Shown here one piece after another: positions 10,428-41,077 of a stretch of 64,000 bases of DNA. The stretch is from assembly GCA_000004985.1 (NCBI GenBank), contig GG738860.1; one strand, 5' to 3'. This DNA is from Naegleria gruberi. Lineage: Eukaryota. A program made the translations under genes and the position numbers. The stretch's first letter is position 1. The number at the start of each line of letters is the position of its first letter. The notes beneath the pieces were generated by a model that saw only the letters and a program-made list of their open reading frames with translations, was not told the origin of the DNA and ran no database searches.

Positions 10428-11678
10428 CTATTTCTTCTTTTGCTTGGCAATTCGTTCTTCCATTCTTACAATCATTTCCTTAATACGTTGTCTATAAATT
10501 TCCATCAATTCATGTCTTTGATTGAGTACCATTCCCTTGGTTTCAATTGGCTCACCCATTACTACATAAGCCTGATTTCCTGAATAAATTTTCCAATCAT
10601 CATATGGCCAAATATGATCAATGCCATAATGAATCACTGGAACAATTGATGCTTGAGTTTCAATGGCGAGAACAAAGAGACCCATCTTGTAAGGGAGGAG
10701 TTCTTTGCTGGAGGAGGTTTGTCTATCACCCTCTGGGTAAATGTAGGTCTGGAATAGACCTCTCTTCATTAATCTTCTCATATTATCAATGACTTCCCAA
10801 GATTGTTTTGGTATTTGACGAATAATAACCTCGCTACCAACTCCATAACTAATCCAACCAAAGAATGGGAAAAGGGCCATCTCAACATTCATTATAGTAA
10901 CAGAGTTTTGAGTCTTGTAGGCTAATTCAACTATTCCATCAGCCAAGCTTCTCTGATTTCCAATTGCGAATATGAATGGACCCTTTTCTCTAATTGTTTG
11001 TTCTTCCTTTAATGAGAGAGTTTTTGTAACTTTCACATTTGGATTTTTCTCATTAATCAAATGATAATACTCAAAAGCATTGAGCTTATTCAAATTTCTA
11101 GCAATATCACTCTCGTATAATACAGTTAAACTATTAAAGAATGCCCAGAAGAATAATTTACAAAAGAATACAATAATTGGATGGATCAAATAGAGATGTG
11201 TGAGAATGACATAATCCTTAGCTCTTTGCTCCTTTTCGTGGAGTGTCATTCCCTCCTTGTTTGTAGTTGTACTTTTTTTGAAATACCTAGCTATTAATCT
11301 TTCCTTTAATCGAAGAAGAGGAAAAATTACATTCTTAATTGTTCCTACTGTCATGTTTCTTACAATTCTAGAAAAAATTGTAATAATCAAACATGGTGTG
11401 GCACCAATTACAATAATCATCCACTTGGAGAAGTGAAACATATTCATTAAAGTTTCCTTCCATTCCTTCTTTTTGCTATTTTTCAATACCAATGAATTAG
11501 GTGATGAAGTAGAAGAATTAGAGTTGTCTTTGGCAGAACAAGTTGATAAATTCAAACCTTGTCCTCCTCCACCAATAGAAAGGGATATAGTTCCAATTAA
11601 ATGTTTTCCTATTACATTCAATCTCCTTCGTATGATGGGATTATTAATATTTAAATTATTCCCACTCGTTAAATTCAT
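10428..11678 (-). CDS. Lysophospholipid acyltransferase (AGPAT/LPLAT family)-like membrane protein. Motif I is divergent.
   Basis: 416-aa ORF with a real ATG. IYPEGDRQ corresponds to the FPEGTR motif. FAIGNQRSLADG corresponds to NHxxxxD with His replaced by Gln. N-terminal TM helices. Confidence 0.55.
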   Translation of the reverse strand: MNLTSGNNLNINNPIIRRRLNVIGKHLIGTISLSIGGGGQGLNLSTCSAKDNSNSSTSSPNSLVLKNSKKKEWKETLMNMFHFSKWMIIVIGATPCLIITIFSRIVRNMTVGTIKNVIFPLLRLKERLIARYFKKSTTTNKEGMTLHEKEQRAKDYVILTHLYLIHPIIVFFCKLFFWAFFNSLTVLYESDIARNLNKLNAFEYYHLINEKNPNVKVTKTLSLKEEQTIREKGPFIFAIGNQRSLADGIVELAYKTQNSVTIMNVEMALFPFFGWISYGVGSEVIIRQIPKQSWEVIDNMRRLMKRGLFQTYIYPEGDRQTSSSKELLPYKMGLFVLAIETQASIVPVIHYGIDHIWPYDDWKIYSGNQAYVVMGEPIETKGMVLNQRHELMEIYRQRIKEMIVRMEERIAKQKKK

Positions 11679-14741: not shown

Positions 14742-17700
14742 TTAGTGAATAGTTTCATACAACTCCATTGCAGTATCAAGCAATAAAGTATCAAATAGTT
14801 GGTCAGTAATAAAGTTTTTGATCATTTCTTCTTCGAGGTTTGAGGATTTCCATTTTTCTGCAGGTTTGAGGATACCAGGAATTAAAGGAATTGAATGTTT
14901 TGGAAGGTATTCATTTTCCATGTCAGAGAGTGTATGATCAACAAATTGCTCATTCTTGGATAATTCAAAGGATTTAACAAGGCTATCAAACACAAATTGG
15001 AAAGGAGTCAATTGATGAACATTGGTGTAATTATTCTTTTTCTTTCTAATATTTTCTTCTCTTCCAAAGACGTGACCCTTAAATGCAACTCCAACGTGTT
15101 CAGATTGCATGATGGTGTTGTATTCACTCAGGTAAAAATTGAATGATTCCAAGACGAGTTGATTAAAAGCATCTTGATTAGGATTGGATGACTTTTCAAG
15201 AACTGATACGTCAACAAGATTACAGACAGATCCAACCTTGTCTAGATTCTTATCCTTAGAATTGTTGTGAATAATATTTAGAAGATTTTCTACATGTTCC
15301 CTAGTTTGAATAATTTCTCCTGATCTTGGTTTTTCTTTGAGGGAAGGTAATGGACCTAGTTTAGTATTGAAAACATGGTATTCGTCATGATCGTGAATGT
15401 GCATATCTGATAAAGTTTCTCCAGTAAAGTCTTCATCTTCGTCGTGATGATCAACTTGCTGTGGAGATTGTTGCTCGTGTAAGTGAATATCATCATCACC
15501 AATAGTATTTTCGTCTTCAATAGAATCGCTGGAAAAGTCAAAGTCATCTTGCTCCAATACTTCTTCTTCCACGTGGAACTTTTCAGTTTGAGGTGATGGT
15601 TCTGAGTCAACCTTGTTTTCGTCGAAATCTTCAAAATCAGAACTAATATCATCATCAAAATCTGATTGAGCAAGCATTTGTTGCTGTTTAGCATCTTCTT
15701 CGTCATTGAGCTTCTTTAACCTAAGTTCTTCTTGTCTTTGCTCTTCCTTTCTGAGTTCTTCTTGACGTAACTGTTCCTTTCTCAATTCTTCTTGTCTTTG
15801 TTCTTCTCTTCTGACTTCCTCCAACTCTTGTTGTTTTTGTTGTTCCTTTCTTAATTCCTCTCTTCTGAGCTCTTCTTGACGTAATTGCTCTTTTCTTAAC
15901 TCCTCTTGTCTCAGATCTTCCTTTCTTTGTTCTTCTCTTCTGATTTCGTCTTGACGAGTTAATTCCTTTTGGTTTTGTTCTTGTTGCTTCAACTCGTCTT
16001 TCAATTTGAGGATTCTGAGCTCTTCCTTTCTCAATTCTTCCTTTCTGAGCTCTTCCTTTTCGATTTCAGCTTGTTTACGTTTCTCCTGTCTAATACGTTC
16101 GTCCTCAAGCTCTTTGTTCCTTAATTGCTCCTTTCGTTTGATTTCCTCTTGTTGCTCTTGCAGCATTTCCATCTTTTTTCTAATTTCTTCTTCAGATGCT
16201 TCTTGCTTTTTGAGTGAATTCTTCAACAATTCTTCTTGCTTTTCCTTCTCCCTTCTGAGTCTTTCTTCTTCTTTTCTCAACTCTTCCTTTTTCTTTGAAT
16301 AGGTAAGTCTTTCTTCTTCAAGTCTTGCCTTTTCTTCATCGAGTTGTTGCATTTTGAGTTTTTCTTGCTCTACTCTGTCTTGTTGTCTTCTTTGGAACTC
16401 TTGCTTTTCTTGTTCTAATTGCTCCTGTTCCTCATGAAGTCTTTCGAGCTCTTCCCTAATGCTATCCTCTCTTTCAGAATCTTGTAAGAGTAACTCCCTC
16501 TTGAGCTTTTCTTGCTTCTCTTGTTCCTTCTTGAGAAGAATTTCCTTTTGTTTTACAAGCTCTTGTTCCATCTTTTTGGCAAGCTCTTCTTCCTTTCTTT
16601 TGGCAACTTCCATCTCAATGTGTTTACGAAGATTATCTTCCTGTTCCAATTGATTTCTTCTCATTTCATCCTCATGTTCTTTGGCAAGACGTTGTTGATC
16701 TTCGAGCTGCTGTTTACTTTCATTGAGCTTGTTTTCAAGTTGCTTTCTGAGAGACTTTTCTTTTTCGAGCATTTCTCTCAACCTATTCTCTTCTTGAATC
16801 TTTCTTTCAGTCTCTTCTTCGAGTTCTCTTCTCTTTCTTTCTTCATTGAGCAATTTTTGTCTAAGAACCTCTTCCTGACCCTTGAGTTTAACAAGATTTT
16901 GTTCTTCTTCTAACTTTTTTCTGAGAGCTTCTTCCATCTTTTTAGAAAGCTCCTCTTCCTTTCTTTTGGCAATGAGCTCAATTTGTTTTCTAATTATTTC
17001 TTCCTGCTCGGCCTGTCTTCTCTTTAATTCTTCTTCTTGTTCCTTCAAGAGCCTTTGTTGTTCCTCTTTATGTTTGAGAAGTTGTTGTTCCATCTTTCTG
17101 TCCATCTCTTCCTCTTTTCTTTTAGCGACTTCCATTTCGATCTGGACACGAAGCTTTTGCTCTTGGTCGAGTTGCTTTCTCTTAAGGTCATCTTCTTGCT
17201 CACGAACAATACGTTGTTGCTCTTCAAGTTGCTGCTTACTCTTGCTGAGCTTGTCTTCAAGTTGCTTACGTAAAAGTTTTTCTCTTTCAAGCATATCCTT
17301 AAGCTGAGACTCTTCTTCAAAGAACTTTTCAGTTGTTTGTTCGAGTTCCCTCCTCTTTCTCTCTTCAGATAAGAGCTTGTGTCTCAAAGCTTGCTCTTCA
17401 TTCTTGAGTTTGAGAATATTATTTTCTTCCTCCAACTTTCTCTTCAACTCTTCTTCCATATTTCTGGAGAGTTCATCGTCCTTTCTCTTAGAGACAAGTT
17501 CAAGCTGCTTACGAATAATGTCTTCTTGTTCAATATGTCTTCTTCTCATTTCCTCTTCTTGTTCTCTAGCAAGACGTTGTTGTTCTTCGAGTTGTTGTTT
17601 ACTCCTACTGAGCTTATCTTCAAGTTGCTTACGTAAAAGTTTTTCCTTCTCAAGCATGTCTTTCAATTGCTTATCCTCTTCAGATAGCTTTTCATTGGAA

Positions 17701-19559
17701 TCTTTGAGTTCGCGTCTCTTGGCCTCTTCTTCGATGAACTGAGTGATGATTGACTCTCTTTGGGCAAATTGTTGTTCAAGTCTCAACCTCATCTCTTCAT
17801 CCCTCTTTCTACGTTCATTATCGATTTCTTCTAACTTTTTTCTAATAATTTCCTCTTCTATTTGTCTCTTCATTACATAATCTTGTTCTATCTTCTTCAG
17901 AAGATTTTCCTTAATTTCATTTTCAATTTTTGCCTTGAGATCCTCTTGAGTGATTTCTTCATCAACTCTCTTCAGCTTTTTTCTCTTTACAGAATTCGAT
18001 ACAGGAGAAGTAGAAATTTCCTCAGATGATGTTTCGCTTTCATAAGAGGTTTCTGAAAGCTTTTTATCTTGAATCATGAGTTCATTCTTGACCTCCTTGA
18101 TCTTTTGCTCTATCTTCTTGGAACGAAGCAATTGTTGTATCTTGGCCTCTTGCTTCTTCTTTTTGGAACGAAGAGCTTTGAGTTCCATTTTCATATTCTC
18201 AATGTTTCTTTCTCTCTCTTCGAATTCTGTTGAAACACTCAGTGTTTCTTCAAAAGACATACTCGAAGTAGTATCCATCAAAGATTCTTCTCTAAGAAGT
18301 TGACTATTATGAATATTTTCAGCCTTTTTACCCAGCATTTCAAGAGCTTCTTCTTCTTTTTTAATTTCATTTTCCAACTTCTTTTCGAGCAAGCTAGCTC
18401 TTTTGATGTTTATCGAAAGAATACTCTCTTCTGATTGTTTGATTTTCTCAATTACATTGAGAGAATCAATTAATCGCCTTGAGATGTCTTCCTTAGACTT
18501 TTCATCAGGCTTTTTACCTTGAGGAGAAGTACCAACTTGGGCATCCATCGTTAGTTTTGGTTTTTCAACTTCTTTAAAAATTTCTCTATCAACAAAGTTT
18601 GGATGAGAAACAAAATTAGGTGAAGGCTTAGTGTAAACAATGTTTGTAGGTTGGCGTCTTAGAAGGTCATCAGTACTAGGTAATTCAAGTATCTCTGGAC
18701 TTGATGGTCTCTGTTCAGTCCAAGCTTGTTTTATGGTATTATTGTTCGATGGATGGTTTTGAATATAGGACGAGTTATGATTATCTTGGTGGGATGTCAC
18801 AATTACTTTTGACATTGGTGGAGAGGAATGGATTGGGCTGAATGGTTGTTGAGCGAAAATGGTTGGCTCTGTTTTGTACATTTCCTTTCGTATCTCTGAG
18901 TATACGTGTGGGAACATGACTTCTCGTCTGTCAATCTCGGAAGGGTATAGATTATGATCATAATATAATGGTGCAGAATATGGCCTAGTGTCCGTTTCTG
19001 ACTTGGTCTTTTTAACTTTCTTTTTCTTTGCATCTCCACTTGATTTTTCCCCTTCCTTTTTTTTAGATTTTTCTTCTTTTCGTATTGAGGAAGAAGGTGG
19101 AGTCTTAGATCTATGTTTCTTTAAAAGAGAATCCAAAGTTGTTACTATTTTTTGTTCTTGTTCGGATGTCATCTTTTTCATCTTCTTCTTTGGAGAAATA
19201 GATTTCTTCTTAGGTTTTGGCACTGTCTTGCTTACATATGCTTCTAATTTTTGAAGTGTTTGTTCTCTCTTTGTCCTTTCGGCTTCCTTTGCCTTATTAA
19301 TCTCTGCTTTTTGATTAAATATTTCCTTCTGCTTCTTTTTCATAAACTCTTTTACTTTATCCTCATCATAGGGTTTCTTTCTATCCATATAATAAGGCTT
19401 TAAATCAACCTTAGGTTCTTCCTTAGGTTTTGTTATTGGAGCTTTTTGAAGGACTGGTGGTGTTGTGGAGGAAGACTTTTTTGGTGGAGCTGAAGATGGT
19501 CTTGTTTCATAGGGTGATTTTTTGCTCGGTGTTGATGATTTACTACTCAAAGAAAACAA
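14742..19559 (-). CDS. Giant (at least 1,605 aa) coiled-coil protein, E/K/R/Q-rich, with internal tandem repeats and an acidic DFDDD/SSD segment. Possibly a cytoskeletal or centrosomal scaffold.
   Basis: Continuous minus-strand ORF. The track start is TTG, so the N-terminal exon lies upstream. The minus ORF 19595..19882 ends in tcgTAAGTG and is a candidate 5' exon. The central 390 aa consist of units of about 120 aa (…KLLRKQLEDKLSKSKQQLEEQQR…IEMEVAKRKEEE…). The C-terminal part is a non-repetitive globular domain. Confidence 0.6.
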   Translation of the reverse strand: MFSLSSKSSTPSKKSPYETRPSSAPPKKSSSTTPPVLQKAPITKPKEEPKVDLKPYYMDRKKPYDEDKVKEFMKKKQKEIFNQKAEINKAKEAERTKREQTLQKLEAYVSKTVPKPKKKSISPKKKMKKMTSEQEQKIVTTLDSLLKKHRSKTPPSSSIRKEEKSKKKEGEKSSGDAKKKKVKKTKSETDTRPYSAPLYYDHNLYPSEIDRREVMFPHVYSEIRKEMYKTEPTIFAQQPFSPIHSSPPMSKVIVTSHQDNHNSSYIQNHPSNNNTIKQAWTEQRPSSPEILELPSTDDLLRRQPTNIVYTKPSPNFVSHPNFVDREIFKEVEKPKLTMDAQVGTSPQGKKPDEKSKEDISRRLIDSLNVIEKIKQSEESILSINIKRASLLEKKLENEIKKEEEALEMLGKKAENIHNSQLLREESLMDTTSSMSFEETLSVSTEFEERERNIENMKMELKALRSKKKKQEAKIQQLLRSKKIEQKIKEVKNELMIQDKKLSETSYESETSSEEISTSPVSNSVKRKKLKRVDEEITQEDLKAKIENEIKENLLKKIEQDYVMKRQIEEEIIRKKLEEIDNERRKRDEEMRLRLEQQFAQRESIITQFIEEEAKRRELKDSNEKLSEEDKQLKDMLEKEKLLRKQLEDKLSRSKQQLEEQQRLAREQEEEMRRRHIEQEDIIRKQLELVSKRKDDELSRNMEEELKRKLEEENNILKLKNEEQALRHKLLSEERKRRELEQTTEKFFEEESQLKDMLEREKLLRKQLEDKLSKSKQQLEEQQRIVREQEDDLKRKQLDQEQKLRVQIEMEVAKRKEEEMDRKMEQQLLKHKEEQQRLLKEQEEELKRRQAEQEEIIRKQIELIAKRKEEELSKKMEEALRKKLEEEQNLVKLKGQEEVLRQKLLNEERKRRELEEETERKIQEENRLREMLEKEKSLRKQLENKLNESKQQLEDQQRLAKEHEDEMRRNQLEQEDNLRKHIEMEVAKRKEEELAKKMEQELVKQKEILLKKEQEKQEKLKRELLLQDSEREDSIREELERLHEEQEQLEQEKQEFQRRQQDRVEQEKLKMQQLDEEKARLEEERLTYSKKKEELRKEEERLRREKEKQEELLKNSLKKQEASEEEIRKKMEMLQEQQEEIKRKEQLRNKELEDERIRQEKRKQAEIEKEELRKEELRKEELRILKLKDELKQQEQNQKELTRQDEIRREEQRKEDLRQEELRKEQLRQEELRREELRKEQQKQQELEEVRREEQRQEELRKEQLRQEELRKEEQRQEELRLKKLNDEEDAKQQQMLAQSDFDDDISSDFEDFDENKVDSEPSPQTEKFHVEEEVLEQDDFDFSSDSIEDENTIGDDDIHLHEQQSPQQVDHHDEDEDFTGETLSDMHIHDHDEYHVFNTKLGPLPSLKEKPRSGEIIQTREHVENLLNIIHNNSKDKNLDKVGSVCNLVDVSVLEKSSNPNQDAFNQLVLESFNFYLSEYNTIMQSEHVGVAFKGHVFGREENIRKKKNNYTNVHQLTPFQFVFDSLVKSFELSKNEQFVDHTLSDMENEYLPKHSIPLIPGILKPAEKWKSSNLEEEMIKNFITDQLFDTLLLDTAMELYETIH
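15716..15960. repeat. Short-period (about 30 bp) degenerate tandem repeat that encodes the (EELRKEQLRQ)n part of the coiled-coil protein.
   Basis: Repeated ttcttcttgtctttg / ttcctttct blocks. The protein reads RQEELRKEQLRQEELRREELRKEQ… Boundaries are approximate. Confidence 0.45.
16500..17900. repeat. In-frame tandem repeat inside the coiled-coil gene, about 3.5 units and about 360 bp per unit.
   Basis: Near-identical DNA blocks: agttgcttacgtaaaagtttttc at about 17263 and about 17623, and a diverged copy at about 16743. The protein units are EEMRRRHIEQEDIIRKQLEL…/EEELKRRQAEQEEIIRKQIEL… Boundaries are approximate. Confidence 0.55.
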
Positions 19560-20708: not shown

Positions 20709-20812
20709 GTTGTTGGAATTTTTTTTGATTTGTGAATTGGCCAATAATTATAATCACCTCAATTTTTGTCTCGAAACGAGGATGTGCTTGCAATTTAAAT
20801 TTTAAAAAAAAA

Positions 20813-21327
20813 ATGATGTCAGCAACAGGAAATCATCATGAACAACAAAATAATGAACAACAGCAGTCGGAAAGAGCCAACCGTAAAAAGATTTTAGATG
20901 CTGTCTTGGAGTATTATTCAGAGGCTTTTTCTATAGAAAAAAGTAACGAGCAAATTAAAAACAAAATGGACCTTTGTTTACCGAAACATGTCTGTAAGCG
21001 TATTTCATTTAAATTATTGAAAACAGGAGCAAATATAAATTCCATTAGTGAGAAAGTTTTGAAAATTCCAAAAAAAGAAAAGAAAATTGAAAATCATGAA
21101 GAAGTGCTTCTTTCCCAAGCAGACTTGGATGATTTTAATAAGGAACCAACACAACATGACACTGAGGAGAAAAAAAAACAAATAATGGAGTATACTGAGC
21201 AGTATGTTCAGAAAAAGTCACAGAGTGTGCTTTCACAGATGGATAGTATTACTTTTCCCAAAAAGATTAGAGCAAGACTTGATCAAATTTCTAATATTAT
21301 TGCTAAAACCTGTATTCATCTAGAAGA
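20813..21327 (+). CDS. 5' part of a gene interrupted by the scaffold gap. Hypothetical basic/acidic protein.
   Basis: ATG at 20813 (MMSATGNHHEQQNNEQ…). The ORF is open until the N run begins at 21328. Confidence 0.4.
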
Positions 21328-22811
21328 NNNNNNNNNNNNNNNNNNNNNNNNNNNNNNNNNNNNNNNNNNNNNNNNNNNNNNNNNNNNNNNNNNNNNNNNN
21401 NNNNNNNNNNNNNNNNNNNNNNNNNNNNNNNNNNNNNNNNNNNNNNNNNNNNNNNNNNNNNNNNNNNNNNNNNNNNNNNNNNNNNNNNNNNNNNNNNNNN
21501 NNNNNNNNNNNNNNNNNNNNNNNNNNNNNNNNNNNNNNNNNNNNNNNNNNNNNNNNNNNNNNNNNNNNNNNNNNNNNNNNNNNNNNNNNNNNNNNNNNNN
21601 NNNNNNNNNNNNNNNNNNNNNNNNNNNNNNNNNNNNNNNNNNNNNNNNNNNNNNNNNNNNNNNNNNNNNNNNNNNNNNNNNNNNNNNNNNNNNNNNNNNN
21701 NNNNNNNNNNNNNNNNNNNNNNNNNNNNNNNNNNNNNNNNNNNNNNNNNNNNNNNNNNNNNNNNNNNNNNNNNNNNNNNNNNNNNNNNNNNNNNNNNNNN
21801 NNNNNNNNNNNNNNNNNNNNNNNNNNNNNNNNNNNNNNNNNNNNNNNNNNNNNNNNNNNNNNNNNNNNNNNNNNNNNNNNNNNNNNNNNNNNNNNNNNNN
21901 NNNNNNNNNNNNNNNNNNNNNNNNNNNNNNNNNNNNNNNNNNNNNNNNNNNNNNNNNNNNNNNNNNNNNNNNNNNNNNNNNNNNNNNNNNNNNNNNNNNN
22001 NNNNNNNNNNNNNNNNNNNNNNNNNNNNNNNNNNNNNNNNNNNNNNNNNNNNNNNNNNNNNNNNNNNNNNNNNNNNNNNNNNNNNNNNNNNNNNNNNNNN
22101 NNNNNNNNNNNNNNNNNNNNNNNNNNNNNNNNNNNNNNNNNNNNNNNNNNNNNNNNNNNNNNNNNNNNNNNNNNNNNNNNNNNNNNNNNNNNNNNNNNNN
22201 NNNNNNNNNNNNNNNNNNNNNNNNNNNNNNNNNNNNNNNNNNNNNNNNNNNNNNNNNNNNNNNNNNNNNNNNNNNNNNNNNNNNNNNNNNNNNNNNNNNN
22301 NNNNNNNNNNNNNNNNNNNNNNNNNNNNNNNNNNNNNNNNNNNNNNNNNNNNNNNNNNNNNNNNNNNNNNNNNNNNNNNNNNNNNNNNNNNNNNNNNNNN
22401 NNNNNNNNNNNNNNNNNNNNNNNNNNNNNNNNNNNNNNNNNNNNNNNNNNNNNNNNNNNNNNNNNNNNNNNNNNNNNNNNNNNNNNNNNNNNNNNNNNNN
22501 NNNNNNNNNNNNNNNNNNNNNNNNNNNNNNNNNNNNNNNNNNNNNNNNNNNNNNNNNNNNNNNNNNNNNNNNNNNNNNNNNNNNNNNNNNNNNNNNNNNN
22601 NNNNNNNNNNNNNNNNNNNNNNNNNNNNNNNNNNNNNNNNNNNNNNNNNNNNNNNNNNNNNNNNNNNNNNNNNNNNNNNNNNNNNNNNNNNNNNNNNNNN
22701 NNNNNNNNNNNNNNNNNNNNNNNNNNNNNNNNNNNNNNNNNNNNNNNNNNNNNNNNNNNNNNNNNNNNNNNNNNNNNNNNNNNNNNNNNNNNNNNNNNNN
22801 NNNNNNNNNNN
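21328..22811. other. Assembly gap (1,484 N).
   Basis: Uninterrupted run of n characters. Confidence 0.99.
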
Positions 22812-23584
22812 ATTTAATTAACAATATGGAAATTAAATATTTAGGATTAAAAAATGAAATTTTTATTTCAATTTTATCACCAACAATTGTGTGGTATGAT
22901 TACTTTGTTTCAAATTATTGTAAAATTTATCCATTAAAAGATTATAAATTAATTTTATTATTAATTATTAAATTATTTATTGATAATTTAAATGGATTAA
23001 AATTATTACATGAATTAAATATTTCACATATTGATTTTAACATTTTAAATTCTAACATAATATTAAATAATTGTTCTGATTTAATTAGTAAATATTTAAA
23101 AGAAAATAATTTACCAACATTTAATATGGTATTAATTGATTTTAATAGTTCAAAATTAGAAAGTCAATTATTATTTACAAATGAATACATTCCAAAAACA
23201 ACACATTATCCTCCTGATTATAAATTATATTATGATAATATAAAACCAAATATATCATTTACAAAAGCACATGATATTTATTCATTATCTATTGTAATGA
23301 TTCAATATATTAACATTTTGATTAATTGTTATGGGAATAATTGCTTTCAAATGAAATCAAATACTATTAGATATATAAATCAATCACATAGAAACAAAGA
23401 CGAACCATTCAATATTGATTTTAATATTTTAAATTTTAATATTTTAAATAGTTTTGAAAAGGAAATTTTTAATGAATTATTTGAAATGATAAGAGAAATG
23501 AATTTAAACCCTTGGAAAATTATTAATGAAAAAGATTATTGTTTACAACAATTAGAAAAATTACAAAATAATGTATTGAATTAG
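22812..23584 (+). CDS. 3' fragment encoding a degenerate protein-kinase-like (pseudokinase-like) C-terminal region. It is about 85% AT.
   Basis: LHELNISHIDFNILNSNIIL corresponds to HRDLKPxN with the catalytic loop degraded. VLIDFNSS corresponds to DFG changed to DFN. HDIYSLSIVMIQYI corresponds to DxWSxG. NPWKII corresponds to HPW. It ends with TAG at 23582-23584. Continuity with the 5' part across the gap cannot be shown. Confidence 0.45.
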
Positions 23585-24023
23585 AATATTTCTGATACAT
23601 CTTCTTCATCACCTATAATTAATAGTGAAATGAAAAATTCACATCAAATGAAACAATGATATTGTCAAATGATTCTTTTTTCCTCAAATTTAATAGTCTC
23701 CCAATATAATCACTTTTGGCAACTTGTATTCCCTAAATATCATTGTCAATTATAATATTTCATTTCACCACAGAAGAGATTTTCTAAAAAATCAATTTTC
23801 TCATCAATTAAATTCCTAATTGTTCAATTTTTACGATATGTTTCCGATAAAATTGAAGAATTTGTTTCCAATAGAATGTATCTATTGCGATACGATTGTA
23901 AGTTGATTTGTTGATCAATAAAATGTTTCGAATATGTTTTAATTAGAGGTAATTAAAGGAAATATTTCGGTTTGTAATCCTGAGGAAAACTAAAAGTTTC
24001 TTATAAATATTGGAAATCAAAAA

Positions 24024-26735
24024 ATGAAAAGAAAACCAATCACGTCATCCTCTGCCAGCAAGAAGGCGAAAACTACCAATACAGAACAGCAACCAATAAT
24101 CATTTCATCACAAGATTCGAATAATGAAGAATCGAACAATGATCAATATTATGATCCGGATACTATCTTTCTATTAGATTCCAATGGTGAGTTTGTGATA
24201 ATCCCCGATGACCAAGAACCAATTTCATCAGAAGAAACAGAAGAAACTAATTTATTAGTTTCATCATCGCAATCACCACCTTTTGATTATTCGATTTATA
24301 CTAGTATCGATCAATTTCTAATAATTCCCACACACAACTTGATAAAGGAAATTCCACACGAAATTATCGCAAATTGGATGTTCTACATGGACAAACAAAC
24401 TCTTTTCAATTTCATTAGAGTTTCTCGAGAAGTTTACAATATATTTGATGAAATTTATGCAGAGAGTGTGGAAAGATTGAGATTGGAAATTTTAAATAAC
24501 AAGAGAAAGAGTAGTGATTTGAATCGATTATTGGATTTGTTTTCGAATGAAAGTCGAGAGAGAAGTGGTGAGAAAGTTATGCTGACCTATGATGACTATT
24601 TCAGAATGAGAAGTTTTACACCGTGGCCTTTGAGTTATTTTCATGATAGGACTCGGTTTGAGAGTGTTGTGAATGAAAATGATCCTCAAATTAAAGTTAT
24701 TAATGAAAAGGCAGATGAACAGATGGCACGTCTATTAGAAATGAATAATGAACAAATGAACAAAGAAACTGCTCAATATGAAAAGGTATTGCCATATGGA
24801 GTTTTTCCAAGAAAAGACATTTACTATTTGACTTTTAATCAATTGGTAAAGAGAAAGTGTGTCAAAAATCTGAAAGAAGACTTGTACATGTATACAGATC
24901 AAGCATATAAAATTGAAAGAGTGATAACAAGTGATTTATATGCAAATGAGGAGAAGAAATATAGTGTGGATTATCATACATATGTGGATAAACACAGTCA
25001 TCCAACAACTGTATATATTGAGAGAATTGTTCGGTTTTTCAAACATCCAAATGAAATGACATTCTCTGACTTTGATAATAGATTCAAGAATAATTTTCTT
25101 AGTGAACTAGCAAGAATATTAGTATATGATTGTGTATTTGAATATAACAAATCAACCAAGACAAGAGAAAGATTTGTTGTATCTGGTGGATCACTGCTTC
25201 ACACTCTTACTGGATGTGGCTGTCAAGATATTGACATTTTTATTATCAATAATCAAGAACCCGATGAAATTGTCAATCAAGCAATCAAACAGGTTTTATT
25301 GAAATTTGAAGAAAAAACCTCAAACTTTACCTATAATATAATGGGTTCAAAAACTACTATTAATATTTGTGAAGAAAGACCTAAAATGAGTATTGCAAAT
25401 GGTTATAGAGTTGAGACCAATCAGAATATTCAGATTGTTCTTTTGAGATATGATTCCATTGAAGAGTTATTACTATTCTTTGATTTGGATTGCTGTAAAT
25501 TGGCATTTGATGGAATTAGAGTTTACACAGTATTGGAATGTTTGAGATCTTTAAAATATAAGATTAACTTTCTTCCAAAACGGACAGGAAATACAGAAAT
25601 CAACAGAGCTAGGGCTTTAAAATACGGTTTTAGAGGTTTTTTTACTTTCACACTCGATACAGATCATCCTCTCTCTCATGCCATGCATTGTGACTTTGTT
25701 GTTGAGAAGCTCAGAAAAAAGATAACAACAGAATACAAAGAGACCCGAATTGATGATATTTACAATGGTAGACGAAATCCTACGACTCAGTTCTTTGTGC
25801 AACCAAAAGATTTTAGCTTTGCAGCACCTATGAAGGAATCGTCAGATCTCGATGAATCAAATTACCTCTATCCATTGATATTGAGAAATGTGGATTATCA
25901 TTTTGTTGATTTGTGTAAATCTATTGGACTCGGTGCTGCATTGTGGAAATTGAAAAAAAACATTTCGAGAGAACGTTCTTGTTACATATTTGATTTCCTT
26001 CTCGATGGAGATACTAAAAGCAAGGCCCTATTCACTTCTGAATTGAAATTAGAAAATTCTGAAAGAAAGGGTGGTTCTGAAATGTTAGAAAAGCTAATTT
26101 CATTAGATGGCTACACATTCTTAGATAGACCTTCTGAACTTTTCAAAAACCTGCAACAAGATTATAATCTCGTCAAAAACAAGTATTCATACTCTCACCT
26201 AGTTCAGAAATATAATATTGTGAATTGTGCCAAATGTTCCAACTATATTTATTCAACACAAATTGCATCTCAATTGAGGTTAAAGAAGAGACAACATGAC
26301 TCGTCCATTGAAATTCCAAAATTTGACACAATTAACGAAAATAATTTCAATCCAGAAATTCATTTCTGTTGTGATTCCTGTTTAAGGAAGGTGAATGGCA
26401 TGATAAAGTTTAGAGCTTTTATCCAATCAACAAGTTATGGAGTTTCTGGAGCTGAAAAAGGAATTGTAACTCTGTTAGTGGAACAAGATCAGAATTCAGG
26501 AATTTCAAAGAGGAAAATCTTTATATATTTGGAAGGGGCTTATGGACTGGAAGAATTGCAAATTGCATTTTATTCCTTACTGAATTATAGGAAATATATT
26601 GAGTACATTTCAGTGGATGATGAAATTCATGTAAAATTGGCAAACACAACAATTGTTTCGTCTGACTATGAAGTTCTCTATCCTCCAAAAACTTACCCTC
26701 CAAAATTTGATTGGATGTTCAATGGATCAATGTGA
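24024..26735 (+). CDS. 903-aa protein with an N-terminal F-box-like motif, a nucleotidyltransferase-fold (GS…DxD…D) core and a C-terminal Cys-cluster.
   Basis: F-box-like: IPHEIIANWMFYMDKQTLFNFIRVSREVYNIF. NTase signature: VVSGGSLLHTLTGCGCQDIDIFII (hG[GS]-x11-DhDh), with a downstream third acidic residue in LLLFFDLDCCKLAF. Cys motif: CAKCSNYIYSTQ…HFCCDSCLRKV. Real ATG. Confidence 0.55.
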   Translation: MKRKPITSSSASKKAKTTNTEQQPIIISSQDSNNEESNNDQYYDPDTIFLLDSNGEFVIIPDDQEPISSEETEETNLLVSSSQSPPFDYSIYTSIDQFLIIPTHNLIKEIPHEIIANWMFYMDKQTLFNFIRVSREVYNIFDEIYAESVERLRLEILNNKRKSSDLNRLLDLFSNESRERSGEKVMLTYDDYFRMRSFTPWPLSYFHDRTRFESVVNENDPQIKVINEKADEQMARLLEMNNEQMNKETAQYEKVLPYGVFPRKDIYYLTFNQLVKRKCVKNLKEDLYMYTDQAYKIERVITSDLYANEEKKYSVDYHTYVDKHSHPTTVYIERIVRFFKHPNEMTFSDFDNRFKNNFLSELARILVYDCVFEYNKSTKTRERFVVSGGSLLHTLTGCGCQDIDIFIINNQEPDEIVNQAIKQVLLKFEEKTSNFTYNIMGSKTTINICEERPKMSIANGYRVETNQNIQIVLLRYDSIEELLLFFDLDCCKLAFDGIRVYTVLECLRSLKYKINFLPKRTGNTEINRARALKYGFRGFFTFTLDTDHPLSHAMHCDFVVEKLRKKITTEYKETRIDDIYNGRRNPTTQFFVQPKDFSFAAPMKESSDLDESNYLYPLILRNVDYHFVDLCKSIGLGAALWKLKKNISRERSCYIFDFLLDGDTKSKALFTSELKLENSERKGGSEMLEKLISLDGYTFLDRPSELFKNLQQDYNLVKNKYSYSHLVQKYNIVNCAKCSNYIYSTQIASQLRLKKRQHDSSIEIPKFDTINENNFNPEIHFCCDSCLRKVNGMIKFRAFIQSTSYGVSGAEKGIVTLLVEQDQNSGISKRKIFIYLEGAYGLEELQIAFYSLLNYRKYIEYISVDDEIHVKLANTTIVSSDYEVLYPPKTYPPKFDWMFNGSM

Positions 26736-26979
26736 GCTAGATACAAAAGTATTATTTTGTTTGGATCATTGTCCTTCAGTTTGTAGTGGAATTTAAATAA
26801 ATTTCTGAATTTCTCATACAATTTTTATTAGATAAAGCCCTAATGTTGGAATACCTGAAATGATGAGAGTGTGGAATTCAAATACCAATAATCCACAACA
26901 CTCTTTGGTTTACATAAAAAGTCAAATGAATTCAGAAAGCAAGAGCTGCTCAAACGCAAAACCACAATCTTGATAAATT

Positions 26980-26984
26980 AAAAA
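26980..26984 (-). terminator. Pol III oligo-T terminator (T5) 3' of tRNA-Arg.
   Basis: aaaaa on the plus strand immediately 3' of the tRNA on the minus strand. Confidence 0.35.
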
Positions 26985-26989
26985 CAATT

Positions 26990-27063
26990 TACCGACAATG
27001 GGGCTCGAACCCACGACCCCAGGATTAGAAGTCCTGTGCTCTATCCAACTGAGCTATGACGGC
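26990..27063 (-). tRNA. tRNA-Arg (anticodon UCU), 74 nt.
   Basis: The reverse complement folds as a cloverleaf: GCCGTCA-TA-GCTC-AGTTGGATA-GAGC-A-CAGGA-CTTCTAA-TCCTG-GGGTC-GTGGG-TTCGAGC-CCCAT-TGTCGGT-A. Internal A box TAGCTCAGTTGG and B box GGTTCGAGCCC. One T·T in the acceptor stem. Identical to the copy at 49598..49671. Confidence 0.85.
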
Positions 27064-27532
27064 TACATGTTGAAAATGAAAAATTTCACACAAAACCGTG
27101 ATCAACCTTACACCTAGCATAAAATTTTCCTTAACGAACCCAATCTCCACTAGTAATTTCAGTTCCCTCCCGTGTACTCTAAAGTTTTATTGTCCAATAA
27201 CCACTTCCGACCACTCCCTACCTTATCAAAACATGCATTCTTATTCAATCATCCCTATCACATACCTTCTCCCAATACTTGTTCTAACCATTAATTCAAA
27301 AAAACATTACCTTGCATTCAACAGAATGTGTGTTTAAGAAAATAATTCTAGTAACACCAAGCCAAACACATGCAAATCTTACCAAAAGCATAAAATTAAG
27401 CGCACATTCATAAATTGAAAAATTATTCCGTTGCCTAAAACCGAGCTCAAGGAAAATACCACACAAACACATGTTTGCCAATTGGTAATTCAATGGTTTA
27501 ACACGAAATAAACAACACAACATTTAAACAAA

Positions 27533-29245
27533 ATGGTACTACATGATGCTTCCCCAACAACAACGAGTAGTGCGGTTGACCAACAAATTAAACAATACAG
27601 GTTTAAAATAGAGGCTGTTTTTGACCACAAGGAGGCGAGAGAAATATTTAGGGAATATATGAAGAAGGATTGTCTCAATGAAGGTGAGTTTACTTTTACC
27701 TTTCGAATAATAATTATTGTGTTATTGTGATGGTTTCGAATTATCACCACCAATCAAAATAATCAATTAATTTCAAACACAACTCTCAATTAAAAATTTG
27801 AATAAGAACCCTTGTTATTTTACGAAAGTGTTGAAAAATACTTGAACACCCGATTAGATAAGAATCGATTAGAATTGGCTGCTGATATCACTGAACATTT
27901 CATCACAGTTAGCCAACATGAATTAAACCTCTCCATGTCTATTCGAAATGATATCCTAACCCGATGGGAACAAATCGAAGAAAGAAACAAGAATGTCATT
28001 GATGATGATTTAATTGCCTGTCCAATTGATTTATTCAGCAGAGCTCAGGATGTAATTTTCATCGAGATGAAACAAGATAATTTTTCAAGATTTGTCGATT
28101 CTGATATTTTCAAAAAGTTTCTAATAAGAGAATTGAAGAAGAATGATCATATTTTGGAATCTTTGGGCACGTGTAAATTCAATTCAAGAACTGGCTCTTT
28201 GGGAAGTTTATCATCTGAGGATTTGATGAATAATTTGACACCAGTTTCATCTTCCATTTCATCTTCACCATTACATGCAATTTCACATTCACAACCAAAT
28301 AATTCTAGTTTTTCTGGGAATGTGAATTTAACTCCAAGAAGTTCTCAAGATAGTGAGAGTGATTCACTCGATGAGAAAATTGCAACTTTCTATGAGAAAC
28401 AAAATGATTCGAATGAAAGTTTACTCTTGCCAATTATTGATGATATGAGTCCATATATAACTCCAAAAGATTATGATTTGGGAATGAAACTTGTAAATTC
28501 ATTGAATGATTCGAATATGTGGAAAACTATTGATGAAAAAGTTGGACTCAAGACACTTGTCAGTAATCCTGTTTTTAGTTTTTCTCCAAGAAAGAGTGAA
28601 AGTGGGAAGATAATTGTCTGCAATTCTGGAATTCTCACTGGTAAACCAAGAGATTGGTTGAATTTGTTATTCTCTGATTCTATCAATAAGATGATTCATG
28701 AAAAGATGAAGAAGAGATTCCAAGTTGACTATATCAAAATTAATCCAAAGAATGGAGCTCACTACCCAAACACAATAGTATACACTGAAGCTCAATTTCC
28801 ATTTCCATTGACTAATAGAGATTTCATCTTTTGTAGAAGTGTAATTCCAGATCTTTACAATGAAACTACTGGAGAATATGACAGATATGTCTTTATTCAA
28901 AAACCAACTCAACATCACGAATATCCAGCCAGAAACTCACCAATCAGAGCACTCCACTACATTTTCTACATTGTTGAAAAGAAGACTCAATCCAGTGTTA
29001 AATATTCAGTATTCGAAACTGGAGATCTCTCCGGCAAAATTCCACCAAAGATTGTTTCAAGCTTTTTCAAGACTATTGCTAATGCCATGCACAAGAAAGT
29101 CATCAAAGCATGTGAAAAGATCTATAACGAAGAAATCGTTTCCAAAGATGCTGATGGCGCCCTATCAACCCTCACTGAAATGCTCAAATATTTGGAACAT
29201 GAAAGAGCTAACAAGTCAAACTCAACAATAGCTGAAAAACATTAA
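27533..29245 (+). CDS. RGS-domain and START (StAR-related lipid-transfer) domain fusion protein. Two exons: 27533..27683, then about 27858 (or 27873)..29245.
   Basis: Exon 1 (track ORF 27533..27730) carries the RGS N-terminus FDHKEAREIFREYMKKDCLNE, followed by GTGAGT at 27684. The intron is AT-rich, about 175-190 nt, phase 1. Exon 2 contains the RGS C-terminus (…SQHELNLSMSIRNDIL…AQDVIFIEMKQDNFSRFVDSDIFKKFL). The START part aligns closely with PCTP: TIVYTEAQFPFPLTNRDFIFCR, SPIRALHY, VFETGDLSGKIPPKIVSSFFKTIANAMHKKVIKAC. The exact acceptor was not resolved. Confidence 0.6.
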
Positions 29246-35656: not shown

Positions 35657-38440
35657 GCTCAAACGAAAAGTCAACCCAACCAATCAGACTTCCAAATTCA
35701 CAGAAGAATCAACTCACTCCCAATACATAGACTCATCAAGGAAATCAATGTACTCACATTCGAATATTCAAATAATAATAAGCAACAAACACTAGATGAA
35801 CTGAATAAGAAGAAAGATGAACTGAAATACAAACAGAAGGAATTTTTTAAGAAAGAGAGAGATAGATGGCTACATATGATTAACAATACAAGTATTGGAT
35901 TTCTATATAGATTTGATGCAGATCTGAACACCAAGAATATCAATTGGAAAAATCTACCAGACAGCGTAAACAAAGATAGCACTCTCCAATTCTTCACACA
36001 GAAATTCAAGAAAGAATATGAAGAAATCAAAATCAAACTCCCAACATCAACAGTCAAAGAAGGTCCACAAGAGATCACAATTAACAAAGATGATATTCTA
36101 AGCACACTCAAGAGACTCAAATCTAAATCTACAGGCACAGACTTTATTACAAATGACTTACTCAAGGAAATGACAGAGACACAAGCAACACAATTAGCAA
36201 TAGAATTTAATAAGATGATTAGTGAAACAAAGGATATACCAATAATAATGAAAGAAGGTTGGATCAAATTAATCCCAAAGAAAGACTCTATTGTAACACA
36301 CAAAGACATTCGTCCTATCACAATAATGAGTACACTATACAGACTACTATTTAACATCATAGCAAGGAAAATAGGTAAATGGGCAAAAGATAACATCAAT
36401 ATTAGACAACAAGCATTCACATCTAACAGAGAAGTTAACAACCATATTCTAGTAATCCAAGCATTAAGAGTCAAATACAAGAAAACAAATGCATTTGTAA
36501 TCACCAACTTGGACATAGAAAATGCATATGACGGTGTAGAACATTGTGTCCTTAGATTAGCTATGAAACATTGTAAATTCCCACTAATGTATAACACAAT
36601 CACCCAAATTATAATAGATTACCAAATCGAGAATTGGAAAATACCTGGCACACCATCATTTAAAATTGAAGAAATAGGAACTCTTAATTTTGCTGATGAC
36701 TGCTCATTAGTAACACAACCCAACAAGAAACACAATACCAAACTCAAACAACTGAACAAATGGATAGGGAATCTCAAAATGAAAATCAATGCTTCTAAAT
36801 CAATAACTTCTGTCACACCGGAAAGAATAGCCCTTAAAGACTTCACAGTTAAGCTTGACGATACGTTAATACCAAGACAAACCAATCAAAGAACATTAGG
36901 AAACTACATCACAGAAGACCATCTCTTCACAAAAGAAATTGACAAAAGAGAAGCTAGAGTAACACAAATACTAAAAATACTTCCAATCCATTTGATAGAA
37001 CCAGAAAATCTCAAAAGAATCATAATGGGCAAGACAATTAGTAGTTTTATCCATCTAGCAAGAGGAAATTCAATTTCCAATCCTCGCCTACAAACAATTG
37101 ACTCAACAATTAGGGGTAACCTAAAAAGATCACTGAAGATCGATGCAAAGGTAAAACCATCCACAATGTATGCACAATTCGAAAGAAAAGGACTAGAAAT
37201 TCCAAACCTCGAATACATAGCCAACTCAATCCTTTGCAATAACTTAATCAACAAATTCCACTCAAGTAACCCACTTGTCAGAGAAGCAGTACAGTACGGA
37301 ATTAATAACTGTAACACGAACAAAACAAAACTACACAACATATTTGAAAAATTCCACTACATCCTAAAACAACAACACAAACTTACCACAACAATATGTA
37401 ACACCAATCATCAACTTCTGGAAAAGGAAAAAGATGAACAATACTCCTACTCAGAATTCACAATATGGACTGATGGATCCAAATCAGAAAACAAAGTAGG
37501 ATTCAGTATAATCATTCAGAACAACGAATTTACAAAAGGATACAAATACAAGCTCCACTCATACCACTCAAACAACATGGCTGAATTATCAGCAATTACA
37601 ACAGCACTACACATCATACCACCAAACAGCAATGCAAAGGTACTCACTGACAGTGAAATAGCAGTCAAAATAATTAACAACACAAATTACAAAGGTCAAT
37701 TTAAGCAAATCAAAGATGAAATTACCAACCTCATCAGCACTAAAAAACTTCAAGCATCCATCGAATGGACAAAAGCTCATACAGGAATAACAGATGGAAA
37801 TAACTACGCTGATAAGAAAGCCAAACAAGCCTCAAGAATAGGACATCGAATTGCACCCCAACATCTACTAACTCAAGGGCAATTAATTATCACCAATTCG
37901 AAAAAAGTTTGGAAAAGTAGAATCAAAGGAGTACTTAGTGAAAAGCTCTACAATCAAGGAACATCCGAACTCATCAACAGAACAAATCTCAATTACCTCA
38001 AAGAACATACCACCCCAGCTCACAAATACTCAATCTGGAGGCTCATGATAAATGGACACTTAAGAAGCCTCATAGTAGACAACCCACAATGCCCAACATG
38101 TAACAAAAACCTTGACACAGAACACCTCTTCATAGCATGCCCAGAAATGAATTCAGCTAGAAACTGGATGATTGAAGAAATCAAAAAAAATACCAATCTC
38201 GAACCAGTACTAAGCACAGAGAGGACAGAAATATTAACACCAAACTCATTCCAACTAAATATCTTTGATATTCTGACGGAACCTATTCAAGGTATTATCA
38301 AAGAACAATGGCCCAAGATACAAGGAGGCCTCTCACTTTTTGGAGGAAGAGTACAAAAACAATACAACAAAATCTTAAAAATTCAATAAGACGTTCCAAA
38401 TGGACGAACCCGTCGGGTTCATTCGATTAATAAACGTTTA
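35657..38440 (+). mobile_element. 5'-truncated non-LTR (LINE-like) retrotransposon carrying an RT-RNaseH-CCHC ORF and a 3' hairpin.
   Basis: The reading frame is open from 35657 to the stop at 38387-38389. RT motif FADDCSLV. RNase H motifs TDGSKSENKVGFSII…AELSAITTAL…HTGI. Zinc knuckle CPTCNKNLDTEHLFIACP. The 3' UTR hairpin gaacccgtcgggttc is followed by aataaacg. There is no endonuclease domain and no ORF1. Boundaries are approximate. Confidence 0.7.
35876..38389 (+). CDS. Reverse transcriptase / RNase H / zinc-knuckle polyprotein of the truncated non-LTR element.
   Basis: Track ORF of 837 aa. Motifs as listed for the mobile element. Confidence 0.7.
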   Translation: MINNTSIGFLYRFDADLNTKNINWKNLPDSVNKDSTLQFFTQKFKKEYEEIKIKLPTSTVKEGPQEITINKDDILSTLKRLKSKSTGTDFITNDLLKEMTETQATQLAIEFNKMISETKDIPIIMKEGWIKLIPKKDSIVTHKDIRPITIMSTLYRLLFNIIARKIGKWAKDNINIRQQAFTSNREVNNHILVIQALRVKYKKTNAFVITNLDIENAYDGVEHCVLRLAMKHCKFPLMYNTITQIIIDYQIENWKIPGTPSFKIEEIGTLNFADDCSLVTQPNKKHNTKLKQLNKWIGNLKMKINASKSITSVTPERIALKDFTVKLDDTLIPRQTNQRTLGNYITEDHLFTKEIDKREARVTQILKILPIHLIEPENLKRIIMGKTISSFIHLARGNSISNPRLQTIDSTIRGNLKRSLKIDAKVKPSTMYAQFERKGLEIPNLEYIANSILCNNLINKFHSSNPLVREAVQYGINNCNTNKTKLHNIFEKFHYILKQQHKLTTTICNTNHQLLEKEKDEQYSYSEFTIWTDGSKSENKVGFSIIIQNNEFTKGYKYKLHSYHSNNMAELSAITTALHIIPPNSNAKVLTDSEIAVKIINNTNYKGQFKQIKDEITNLISTKKLQASIEWTKAHTGITDGNNYADKKAKQASRIGHRIAPQHLLTQGQLIITNSKKVWKSRIKGVLSEKLYNQGTSELINRTNLNYLKEHTTPAHKYSIWRLMINGHLRSLIVDNPQCPTCNKNLDTEHLFIACPEMNSARNWMIEEIKKNTNLEPVLSTERTEILTPNSFQLNIFDILTEPIQGIIKEQWPKIQGGLSLFGGRVQKQYNKILKIQ

Positions 38441-40827: not shown

Positions 40828-40865
40828 TCTCTTTTGGCTTTTAAAAAAGGGAAGACATTCCACCC

Positions 40866-40876
40866 CATTCGAAACC
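40866..40876 (+). promoter_or_regulatory. Extra B-box-like element (CATTCGAAACC) about 40 bp downstream of tRNA-Ile.
   Basis: Resembles the Pol III B-box consensus GGTTCGAANCC. Dictyostelid tRNA genes commonly carry a downstream ex-B box. Confidence 0.4.
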
Positions 40877-40887
40877 CAAGTAAGATT

Positions 40888-40906
40888 ATTTTTTTTGGAA
40901 ACATTG
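40888..40906. repeat. Target-site duplication (5' copy), ATTTTTTTTGGAAACATTG.
   Basis: Exact 19-nt match with 45758..45776. Confidence 0.8.
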
Positions 40907-40938
40907 GGGGGGCTTCAAAAAAATATTTTAAATCAGAA

Positions 40939-41032
40939 ATGAATAACAACAAGAGACGAATTAATCGTCAAAAATTCACCAACCAGAATCTAAACAACAG
41001 GAACAACACTGGTAATAACAACAACAATATTA

Positions 41033-41077
<45 letters not shown>

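Follow-up and report, generated by a model that had tools for sequence, protein, structure and literature searches.

An AT-rich block next to a scaffold gap of Naegleria gruberi encodes the predicted C-lobe of a divergent kinase-like domain

Introduction

On contig GG738860.1 of the Naegleria gruberi assembly GCA_000004985.1, a short and extremely AT-rich block (22812-23584) is located directly behind a scaffold gap. All positions refer to the stretch of 64,000 nt that was analyzed, which is termed the window. This locus raises the question whether the block belongs to N. gruberi at all and, if so, what it encodes and how it acquired its composition. An earlier note, made from the sequence alone, had left the choice between a fast-evolving pseudokinase gene and a mis-joined or contaminant contig end; the divergent gene turned out to be essentially correct, whereas the mis-join and the contaminant did not hold. 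In our view it is very probable that the block is authentic N. gruberi DNA, that it represents the C-lobe of a kinase-like domain in an unannotated gene of approximately 1,010 codons, and that its AT content is inherited. For the N. gruberi reference, this removes the suspicion of a contaminant and assigns an unannotated gene to the locus.

The block is coding

The block has a GC content of 16.4% (83.6% AT) over 773 bases, compared to 33.4% for the whole window. N-free windows of 773 bases have a mean of 33.6% GC with a standard deviation (sd) of 3.4%, which places the block approximately 5 sd below the mean, in agreement with the compositional discordance described earlier; the next-lowest window of this size without overlap to the block has 22.8% GC. 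The best single change point of composition, determined by maximum likelihood, is situated at 23592, 8 nt past the stop codon. The 439-bp spacer that follows has 24.8% GC, and the other spacers of the window have 13-36%, mostly 25-36%.

Starting from 22814, the block is open for 256 codons up to its TAG, and the other five frames contain 15-44 stops each. In 5,000 shuffled sequences, read in six frames, the longest open run comprised 123 codons (mean 51), so that 256 open codons at 16% GC are far beyond chance. The block is coding. Its GC content at the first, second, and third codon position (GC1, GC2, and GC3) is 22%, 18%, and 9.4-9.7%, compared to 30-52%, 24-45%, and 20-35% for the 28 other open reading frames (ORFs) of the window. 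As noted earlier, third positions are nearly exclusively A or T: 232 of 248 synonymous codons end in A/T, whereas the codon usage of the window itself predicts 176.8 (z = 8.0). In the product, Ile, Asn, Leu, and Tyr are enriched. Lys, which the earlier note had listed together with Ile, Asn, and Leu, is not (7.8% versus 8.2% in the window ORFs). Likewise, the block is indeed unlike the other genes, but the range of 62-66% AT given for these is exceeded by the retroelement ORFs at 40834-45706 (71-74% AT).

Relatives and family architecture

Relatives were collected by an exhaustive phmmer (HMMER) search of 1.84 billion representative proteins, which resulted in five matches. These are P0007, a protein of 562 amino acids (aa) from the Logan assembly of SRR25266757 with 61% identity over block residues 5-256 (E 1e-74); P0008 (XP_002678710.1 / EFC45966.1), an annotated N. 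gruberi paralogue; P0009, a metagenome fragment of 183 aa with the matching contig L003; P0011, the Willaertia magna protein KAL9652046.1 of 969 aa, which has the complete architecture; and P0010, an ordinary dual-kinase protein (E 4e-4). Over the region with the catalytic loop, DFG-like, and subdomain IX motifs, identity with the Willaertia protein is 28%. Dictyostelium, Plasmodium, and viruses yielded no relatives in this search, and a Dictyostelium discoideum origin, for which a check had been proposed, was not supported by it. In a word-indexed protein search the block alone gave no match, the block locus gave no self-match, and the family profile gave only P0007 and P0008. One metagenome scan was made with no confirmed relative.

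P0008, P0011, and three ORF pieces of L003 have a common layout of an N-terminal region, a conserved central domain, and the kinase-like domain. The N-terminal part would be a helical region. The central domain is marked by the motifs EMTHQIP, GDTxIR, LLxMESQ, HKDFEK, CFGILSS, and YSLSLISSH and has no Pfam match; all PDB profile matches have E >= 0.66 and are confined to the kinase-like tail of the profile. In case of P0007, the kinase-like domain follows a shorter N-terminal region without clear similarity to other members. In the searches made, the family was found only in Heterolobosea, namely in Naegleria, in Willaertia, and as one metagenome relative. The window gene is a new unannotated member of this small, previously undescribed kinase-like family, which also carries a conserved central domain of unknown fold.

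On L003 (European Nucleotide Archive (ENA) metagenome assembly ERZ27315067), a whole family member with normal GC content (34-37%) is located at 268-2667. It is spread over three frames (268-858, 959-2053, and 2050-2667), which were called as separate proteins and thus imply short introns or frameshifts.

A divergent kinase-like domain

The motifs quoted in the earlier note were all located, SHIDFNILNSN at 23024-23056, IDFN at 23135-23146, DIYSLS at 23273-23290, and NPWKI at 23507-23521. The kinase hidden Markov model (HMM) scan that it had proposed gave a match to Pfam Pkinase PF00069 (E 0.007; aa 55-182 on profile positions 104-207), at 16.2 bits under the Pfam gathering cut-off of 31.7 bits. 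The relatives score 9.9-17.9 bits, and the weak Pkinase matches of four family members are colinear with the profile. The four-sequence family alignment and profile, A2, was aligned to human CDK2 by hhalign with a probability of 94.5% and E 7.7e-8 over 93 columns, in a register that pairs HIDFNILN with HRDLKPQN, IDFN with ADFG, and AHDIYSLS with AVDIWSLG. This agrees with the earlier assignment of kinase-like subdomains VIb-XI. PDB sequence matches at E <= 1 were protein kinases in 197 of 197 cases; a PDB phmmer search with the single block sequence gave no match. On sequence criteria, the domain is a divergent eukaryotic-protein-kinase-like domain with the block as its C-lobe.

In the catalytic-loop equivalent HIDFNILN (Table 1), the catalytic Asp74 and Asn79 are retained, and the Arg of HRD as well as the Lys of the Ser/Thr-kinase loop are replaced. 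The pattern H-x-D-x4-N is common to P0007, P0011, and the L003 ORF. In the DFG equivalent, V106, L107, D109, F110, N111, and S113 are invariant in A2. The best-conserved motif of the family is the subdomain IX equivalent FTKAHDIYSLSIV, of which K151, A152, H153, D154, Y156, S157, and V161 are invariant in A2. None of the family members has lost the catalytic Asp, the catalytic Asn, or the Asp of the DFG type.

The N-lobe of the window copy is situated in the N-run. Its relatives show, by eye, a candidate Lys (F-I/T/V-K) and a candidate Glu (E-N-x-x-x-M-N), and P0011 residues 628-750 match Pfam Pkinase positions 21-130 weakly (E 0.002). Hence, both the beta3 Lys and the alphaC Glu are apparently retained in the relatives; a GxGxxG glycine-rich loop was not recognizable in manual reading of their alignments. 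A pseudokinase is recognized by the loss of the beta3 Lys, the catalytic Asp, or the DFG Asp. Both Asp are present in the window copy and the Lys position falls within the gap, so that the labels "pseudokinase" and "degraded" do not seem justified from the visible residues. Since the domain retains the Asp and Asn of the catalytic loop as well as the DFG-type Asp, and the relatives apparently have the beta3 Lys and alphaC Glu, we presume an atypical, probably active phosphotransferase rather than a dead pseudokinase.

AlphaFold2 models have a mean predicted local distance difference test (pLDDT) score of 42 for P0007 and a pLDDT of 32 for P0008. In a Foldseek search of the PDB with the low-confidence P0007 model, the top 50 matches were all kinases, none of them significant (E >= 0.047, target-normalized TM-score 0.21-0.41).

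IDFN occurs three times in the block product. The third copy (23414-23425) is part of a duplicate of the catalytic-loop coding segment (23412-23442) and is not a kinase motif. P0007 lacks the repeat at the matching position, and the catalytic-loop DNA of L001, the contig of the P0007 gene, is also similar to 23412-23442 (94%). The segment looks like a local duplication or conversion particular to the window copy.

Probable gene layout across the scaffold gap

The features of the locus are listed in Table 1. The proposed gene would start at ATG 20813, comprise approximately 1,010 codons, and be unannotated and broken by the scaffold gap. Its predicted full product of approximately 1,010 aa is comparable to the Willaertia homologue (969 aa).

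Table 1. Features of the kinase-like gene and the adjoining scaffold gap.
Feature	Position	Strand	Remarks
5' gene part	20813..21327	+	ATG 20813; 171 codons running into the gap; GC 31.8%, GC3 26.9%
N-run, scaffold gap	21328..22811	.	1,484 N; would hide central domain and kinase-like N-lobe, by homology
AT-rich block, predicted C-lobe of kinase-like domain	22812..23584	+	256 codons from 22814; TAG 23582-84
Catalytic-loop equivalent HIDFNILN	23027..23050	+	aa 72-79; CDK2 HRDLKPQN in alignment
DFG equivalent VLIDFNSSK	23129..23155	+	aa 106-114; metal-binding Asp109 retained; pairs with CDK2 ADFG
Subdomain IX equivalent FTKAHDIYSLSIV	23258..23296	+	aa 149-161; pairs with CDK2 AVDIWSLGCIF
Local duplicate of catalytic-loop coding segment (IDFNILNFN)	23412..23442	+	31 nt; 90% identical to 23028-23058
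TAG and in-frame tail NISDTSSSSPIINSEMKNSHQMKQ	23582..23658	+	24 codons to TGA 23656-58; tail coding in P0008

The 5' part has no significant Pfam match. Its last 47 residues (21185-21325) are 95.7% identical to P0008 residues 1-47, with differences at 2 of 47 positions, and it aligns with the N-terminal region of the Willaertia protein. P0008 matches the window at two places only, with residues 1-47 and with residues 578-654. The latter are 86% identical to the translation of 23420-23656, including 42 consecutive identical residues right before the stop. Thus, a single annotated protein, P0008, combines counterparts of the 5' half and of the block's tail, arranged as in the window. Judged from P0008 and P0007, the window gene should lack approximately 583 residues (1,749 nt), compared to 1,484 N in the gap. 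The presence of both ends in P0008 in this order and the expected missing length close to that of the gap make it likely, as far as homologues indicate, that the two halves are one gene. The length of the N-run leaves both ORF halves in one frame by coordinate arithmetic. The link to the 5' half, which the earlier note had regarded as unproven, is therefore supported indirectly by P0008, the Willaertia architecture, and these lengths. Its statement that an ORF across the gap is artificial was right: the ORFs drawn through the N-run, 20732-23584 (+, 950 aa) and 21316-22824 (-, 502 aa), are artefacts of the translation of N.

P0008 was also considered as the gene model of the window locus itself. 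This is ruled out by the 2 of 47 N-terminal and several C-terminal residues that differ, and by its accession EFC45966, which is at least 44 away from EFC46010/EFC46013. By accession order, no plus-strand gene, and thus no gene model at the block locus, exists between EFC46012 and EFC46013.

Recurrence and possible cause of the AT shift

The AT-rich state is not restricted to the window copy. The P0007 gene is located on L001 as a single, uninterrupted ORF of 562 codons, of which codons 1-200 have 31% GC (GC3 23%) and codons 201-562, corresponding exactly to the kinase-like module, 17.6% GC (GC3 6.9%). The flanks on either side have 34% GC, with a range of 30-38%. Block and L001 are 77% identical in nucleotide and about 60-61% in amino acid sequence, with approximately 0.5 synonymous substitutions per site and a ratio of nonsynonymous to synonymous substitution rates (dN/dS) of approximately 0.54 (Nei-Gojobori), which also speaks for a coding block. 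The AT-rich state, common to both, therefore predates their divergence and was maintained over these substitutions, with both frames intact. In the Willaertia gene, the kinase-like part has a GC3 of 21.6% versus 26-28% in the rest of the gene, at a locus of 23% GC; L003 has no AT dip (GC3 36%). Within the Naegleria lineage, the kinase-like module thus appears to have inherited its extreme AT content, and the homologues from Willaertia and the metagenome show it mildly or not at all.

Considering both copies, which are diverged by approximately 23% in nucleotide sequence, GC3 falls from approximately 25% to 5-10% at the domain boundary. Such a sharp compositional shift at the scale of one protein domain, recurring in two copies, is unusual and hard to reconcile with a genome-wide mutation bias. 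Moreover, the spacers of the same window mostly have 25-36% GC, and genome-wide mutation bias alone does not fit the AT shift. The indices of repeat-induced point mutation (RIP; thresholds TpA/ApT > 0.89 and (CpA+TpG)/(ApC+GpT) < 1.03) were negative, with values of 0.76 and 1.84 for the block and 0.76 and 1.95 for the L001 module. CpG is depleted beyond the background, with observed/expected ratios of 0.19 for the block and 0.00 for the L001 module versus 0.39-0.51 for the other window regions measured, although the counts are small.

As to the cause of the shift, we tentatively favor a locus-specific, AT-biased mutation regime that would act on a weakly constrained multi-copy module. Selection would hold the reading frame and the motifs despite such a bias. 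N. gruberi methylates its repeats and silent genes to 5-methylcytosine (5mC) irrespective of the dinucleotide context, within 447 heterochromatic regions (PMC12344493); deamination of all-context 5mC would strip C and G whatever the context. Mimivirids use Naegleria-preferred codons more strongly than the host itself (PMC11702301), and their codon bias runs in the same direction as that of the block. It is tempting to speculate that a multi-copy, annotation-invisible module is kept at approximately 16% GC (GC3 5-10%) within a 33% GC genome by a locus-specific process, for which all-context 5mC deamination or repeated exchange with an AT-rich virus may be candidates, but we consider this extended version quite unlikely. 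In that case, rather than being an ordinary divergent gene, the block would represent a regime of composition at the scale of one domain, which may be linked to the heterochromatic silencing of a rapidly evolving gene family.

Extreme AT tracts are present outside coding DNA of the clade as well, as indicated by two intergenic stretches of 0-9% GC (3601-4500 and 10501-11100) that flank the homologue on the Willaertia magna contig L002 (JBEGDK010000068.1). In the window, a 143-bp non-coding spacer between two plus-strand ORFs (52375-52517) has 13% GC and is AT-rich like the block.

Alternative explanations

Several observations weigh against an intact, inherited N. gruberi gene. The window copy is unannotated, and its contiguity over the N-run is supported indirectly, by homologues. 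The Pkinase score is below the gathering cut-off, and the AlphaFold models are of low confidence. Furthermore, the GC3 of approximately 10% in the block ORF beside intergenic DNA of 25-36% GC does not follow from this reading. Finally, dN/dS is just moderately under 1, and a TAG is present in the window copy where the paralogue has TGG, so that this copy could be decaying.

The last two points lead to the alternative that survives best, namely that the family is real and the window copy is a decaying, non-functional pseudogene, with the AT drift, the TAG, and the duplication resulting from relaxed constraint. At the position of TAG 23582-84, P0008 has Trp (TGG), reading ...NNVLHWNISDTSSSPTINSEMKNSHQMKQ, and ends at the same TGA, up to which the frame of the window copy is still open. 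Besides the TAG and dN/dS, the 31-nt duplication particular to the window copy and the lack of a gene model are in agreement with decay. Against it, 256 stop-free codons at 16% GC are far from chance, every family-invariant residue is intact in the window copy, and the 562-codon ORF of L001 is equally AT-rich and intact. The tail that is lost by the TAG is conserved neither in P0007 nor in P0011, and the TAG resembles a recent nonsense mutation, or an error in sequencing, which removes this non-conserved tail. We therefore regard decay as unlikely and prefer an intact gene with inherited AT content.

Clearly improbable is a re-acquisition of the module via a giant virus or a similar AT-rich element, whose composition it took before it was re-inserted or gene-converted. 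Such a passage would be compatible with the coincidence of the compositional unit and the homologous module, which is located behind unrelated N-terminal regions in P0007 and the window gene, with the AT shift of the retroelement ORFs of the window, and with the codon preference of mimivirids (PMC11702301). However, no viral relative emerged from the exhaustive HMMER search and none was confirmed in two IMG/VR scans, one for the block and one for the profile, no viral hallmark genes or terminal repeats are situated beside the module in the window or in L001, and endogenous viral elements of the major capsid protein (MCP) type were not detected in Naegleria genomes (PMC11702301). In addition, the surroundings of the module show no terminal or tandem repeats that would point to a mobile element, and its neighbors are ordinary host genes. 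As the Willaertia and metagenome homologues already carry the domain at the same position of the protein, vertical descent suffices.

The AT-rich stretch might also be taken for an intron, as implied by the Joint Genome Institute (JGI) model of P0008. P0008 lacks residues for block aa 1-212 and proceeds from ...KEFKIR directly to NFEKEIF, and an AG acceptor fits this junction at 23450-51; judged from the protein alignment, the AT-rich core of the kinase-like domain was apparently modeled as an intron there. An intron is nevertheless very improbable, as the stretch is open, encodes catalytic loop, DFG-like, and subdomain IX motifs that are conserved with Willaertia and the CDK2 profile, and corresponds to a region inside the uninterrupted 562-codon ORF of L001. 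Ab initio gene finders often take very AT-rich stretches for introns. Gene models appear either to overlook the AT-rich kinase core of this family or to splice it out, as P0008 lacks its core and the window locus has no model, and Naegleria kinome counts may therefore be too low.

Hardly credible, finally, is a contaminant or chimeric join, in which the block from another AT-rich organism (e.g., Dictyostelium) was attached by an assembly or cloning error: its composition and codon usage are far from all other window ORFs, it adjoins the scaffold gap, and the N. gruberi proteome is listed among genomes with some contaminant proteins (PMC10831095), but the HMMER search gave only heterolobosean relatives and one generic kinase, the independent Illumina-era Logan contig repeats the dip between flanks of 31-38% GC at 77% nucleotide and 61% amino acid identity, the annotated paralogue agrees with the block in each of the final 42 residues ahead of the stop, the composition boundary lies at the stop codon, and the DNA continues uninterrupted into an N. 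gruberi gene (100% identity). The dip of L001, the composition of the outgroups, and the unbroken run into the host gene thus led us to reject the mis-joined or contaminant end of the earlier note. The ORF concerned (24024-26732) matches EFC46013.1 of N. gruberi at 100% identity, and the ORF at 2324-4756 is identical to EFC46010.1. Both proteins are assigned to a scaffold of 536,960 bp, and the scaffold of P0008 has this length, too. The GC content of the window is within the range of Naegleria genomes (33-37%; PMC12482156), and the neighbors are ordinary eukaryotic genes (GBP, COG7, Fz-domain, RGS/START, Ras, thioredoxin, glycosyltransferase, and two retroelements).

Comparison with known systems

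The block family shares with the eukaryotic protein kinase (ePK) superfamily (PF00069) the order and spacing of the alphaE helix, H-x-D-x4-N, D-F-x, and D-x-[WY]-S. It differs in the replacement of HRD by HID or HCD, of the loop Lys by Asn or Ser, and of DFG by DFN, in the lack of a recognizable glycine-rich loop in the relatives (manual reading), and in the fusion to a conserved central domain of approximately 450 aa without Pfam or PDB match.

The FIKK kinases of Plasmodium and the fungal FunK1 (Pfam PF17667) are likewise confined to a single lineage, multi-copy, and fast-evolving, with N-terminal regions that vary and a glycine loop that is atypical or absent. The catalytic loop of FunK1, H-R-D-I-S-x-x-N, resembles HCD(L/V)SxSN of the Willaertia and metagenome members. 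Pfam matches to FIKK or FunK1 were absent at E <= 10 for the block and at E <= 1 for P0007, P0008, P0009, and P0011, and the FIKK motif is missing in the block family. The likeness is one of analogy, not of membership.

The AT isochores of Leptosphaeria maculans, generated by RIP, are AT-rich islands with fast-evolving genes. Similar to the situation described here, the genes within such a local island adopt strongly AT-biased codons and residues, and the genome elsewhere is higher in GC. In contrast, the island described here covers approximately 1 kb and equals one protein domain, its RIP indices are negative, and its ORF is intact.

Other features of the window

Downstream of the block, EFC46013.1 (P0001, 1,374 aa; PF26128 and RGS; 24024-29245) appears to join two separate long ORFs. 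The first (24024-26735) belongs to an F-box-like family with paralogues of 43-44% identity, and the second (27812-29245) contains RGS and START. Due to the distance of approximately 1.1 kb between the two ORFs, EFC46013.1 may be a mis-fusion.

Retroelement-like sequences are located at 35876-38389 (ORF with RVT_1 and RNase H) and at 40834-45706. The latter consist of three ORFs (40834-42252, 42249-42773, and 42797-45706), with RVT_1 in the last only. With 26-29% GC, this set is the most AT-rich coding DNA of the window after the block.

On the minus strand, an ORF of 1,605 codons (14742-19559) has no Pfam match and a GC1 of 51.5%. Over 16-18 kb, the AT skew reaches down to -0.53 and the GC skew down to -0.31, which suggests a compositionally biased or repetitive product.

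The GBP-like EFC46010.1 (2324-4756) was found in one 90%-identity cluster with P0013, an ENA-derived fragment of 279 aa; this indicates that some public data sets, environmental or assembled, contain a close relative of N. gruberi.

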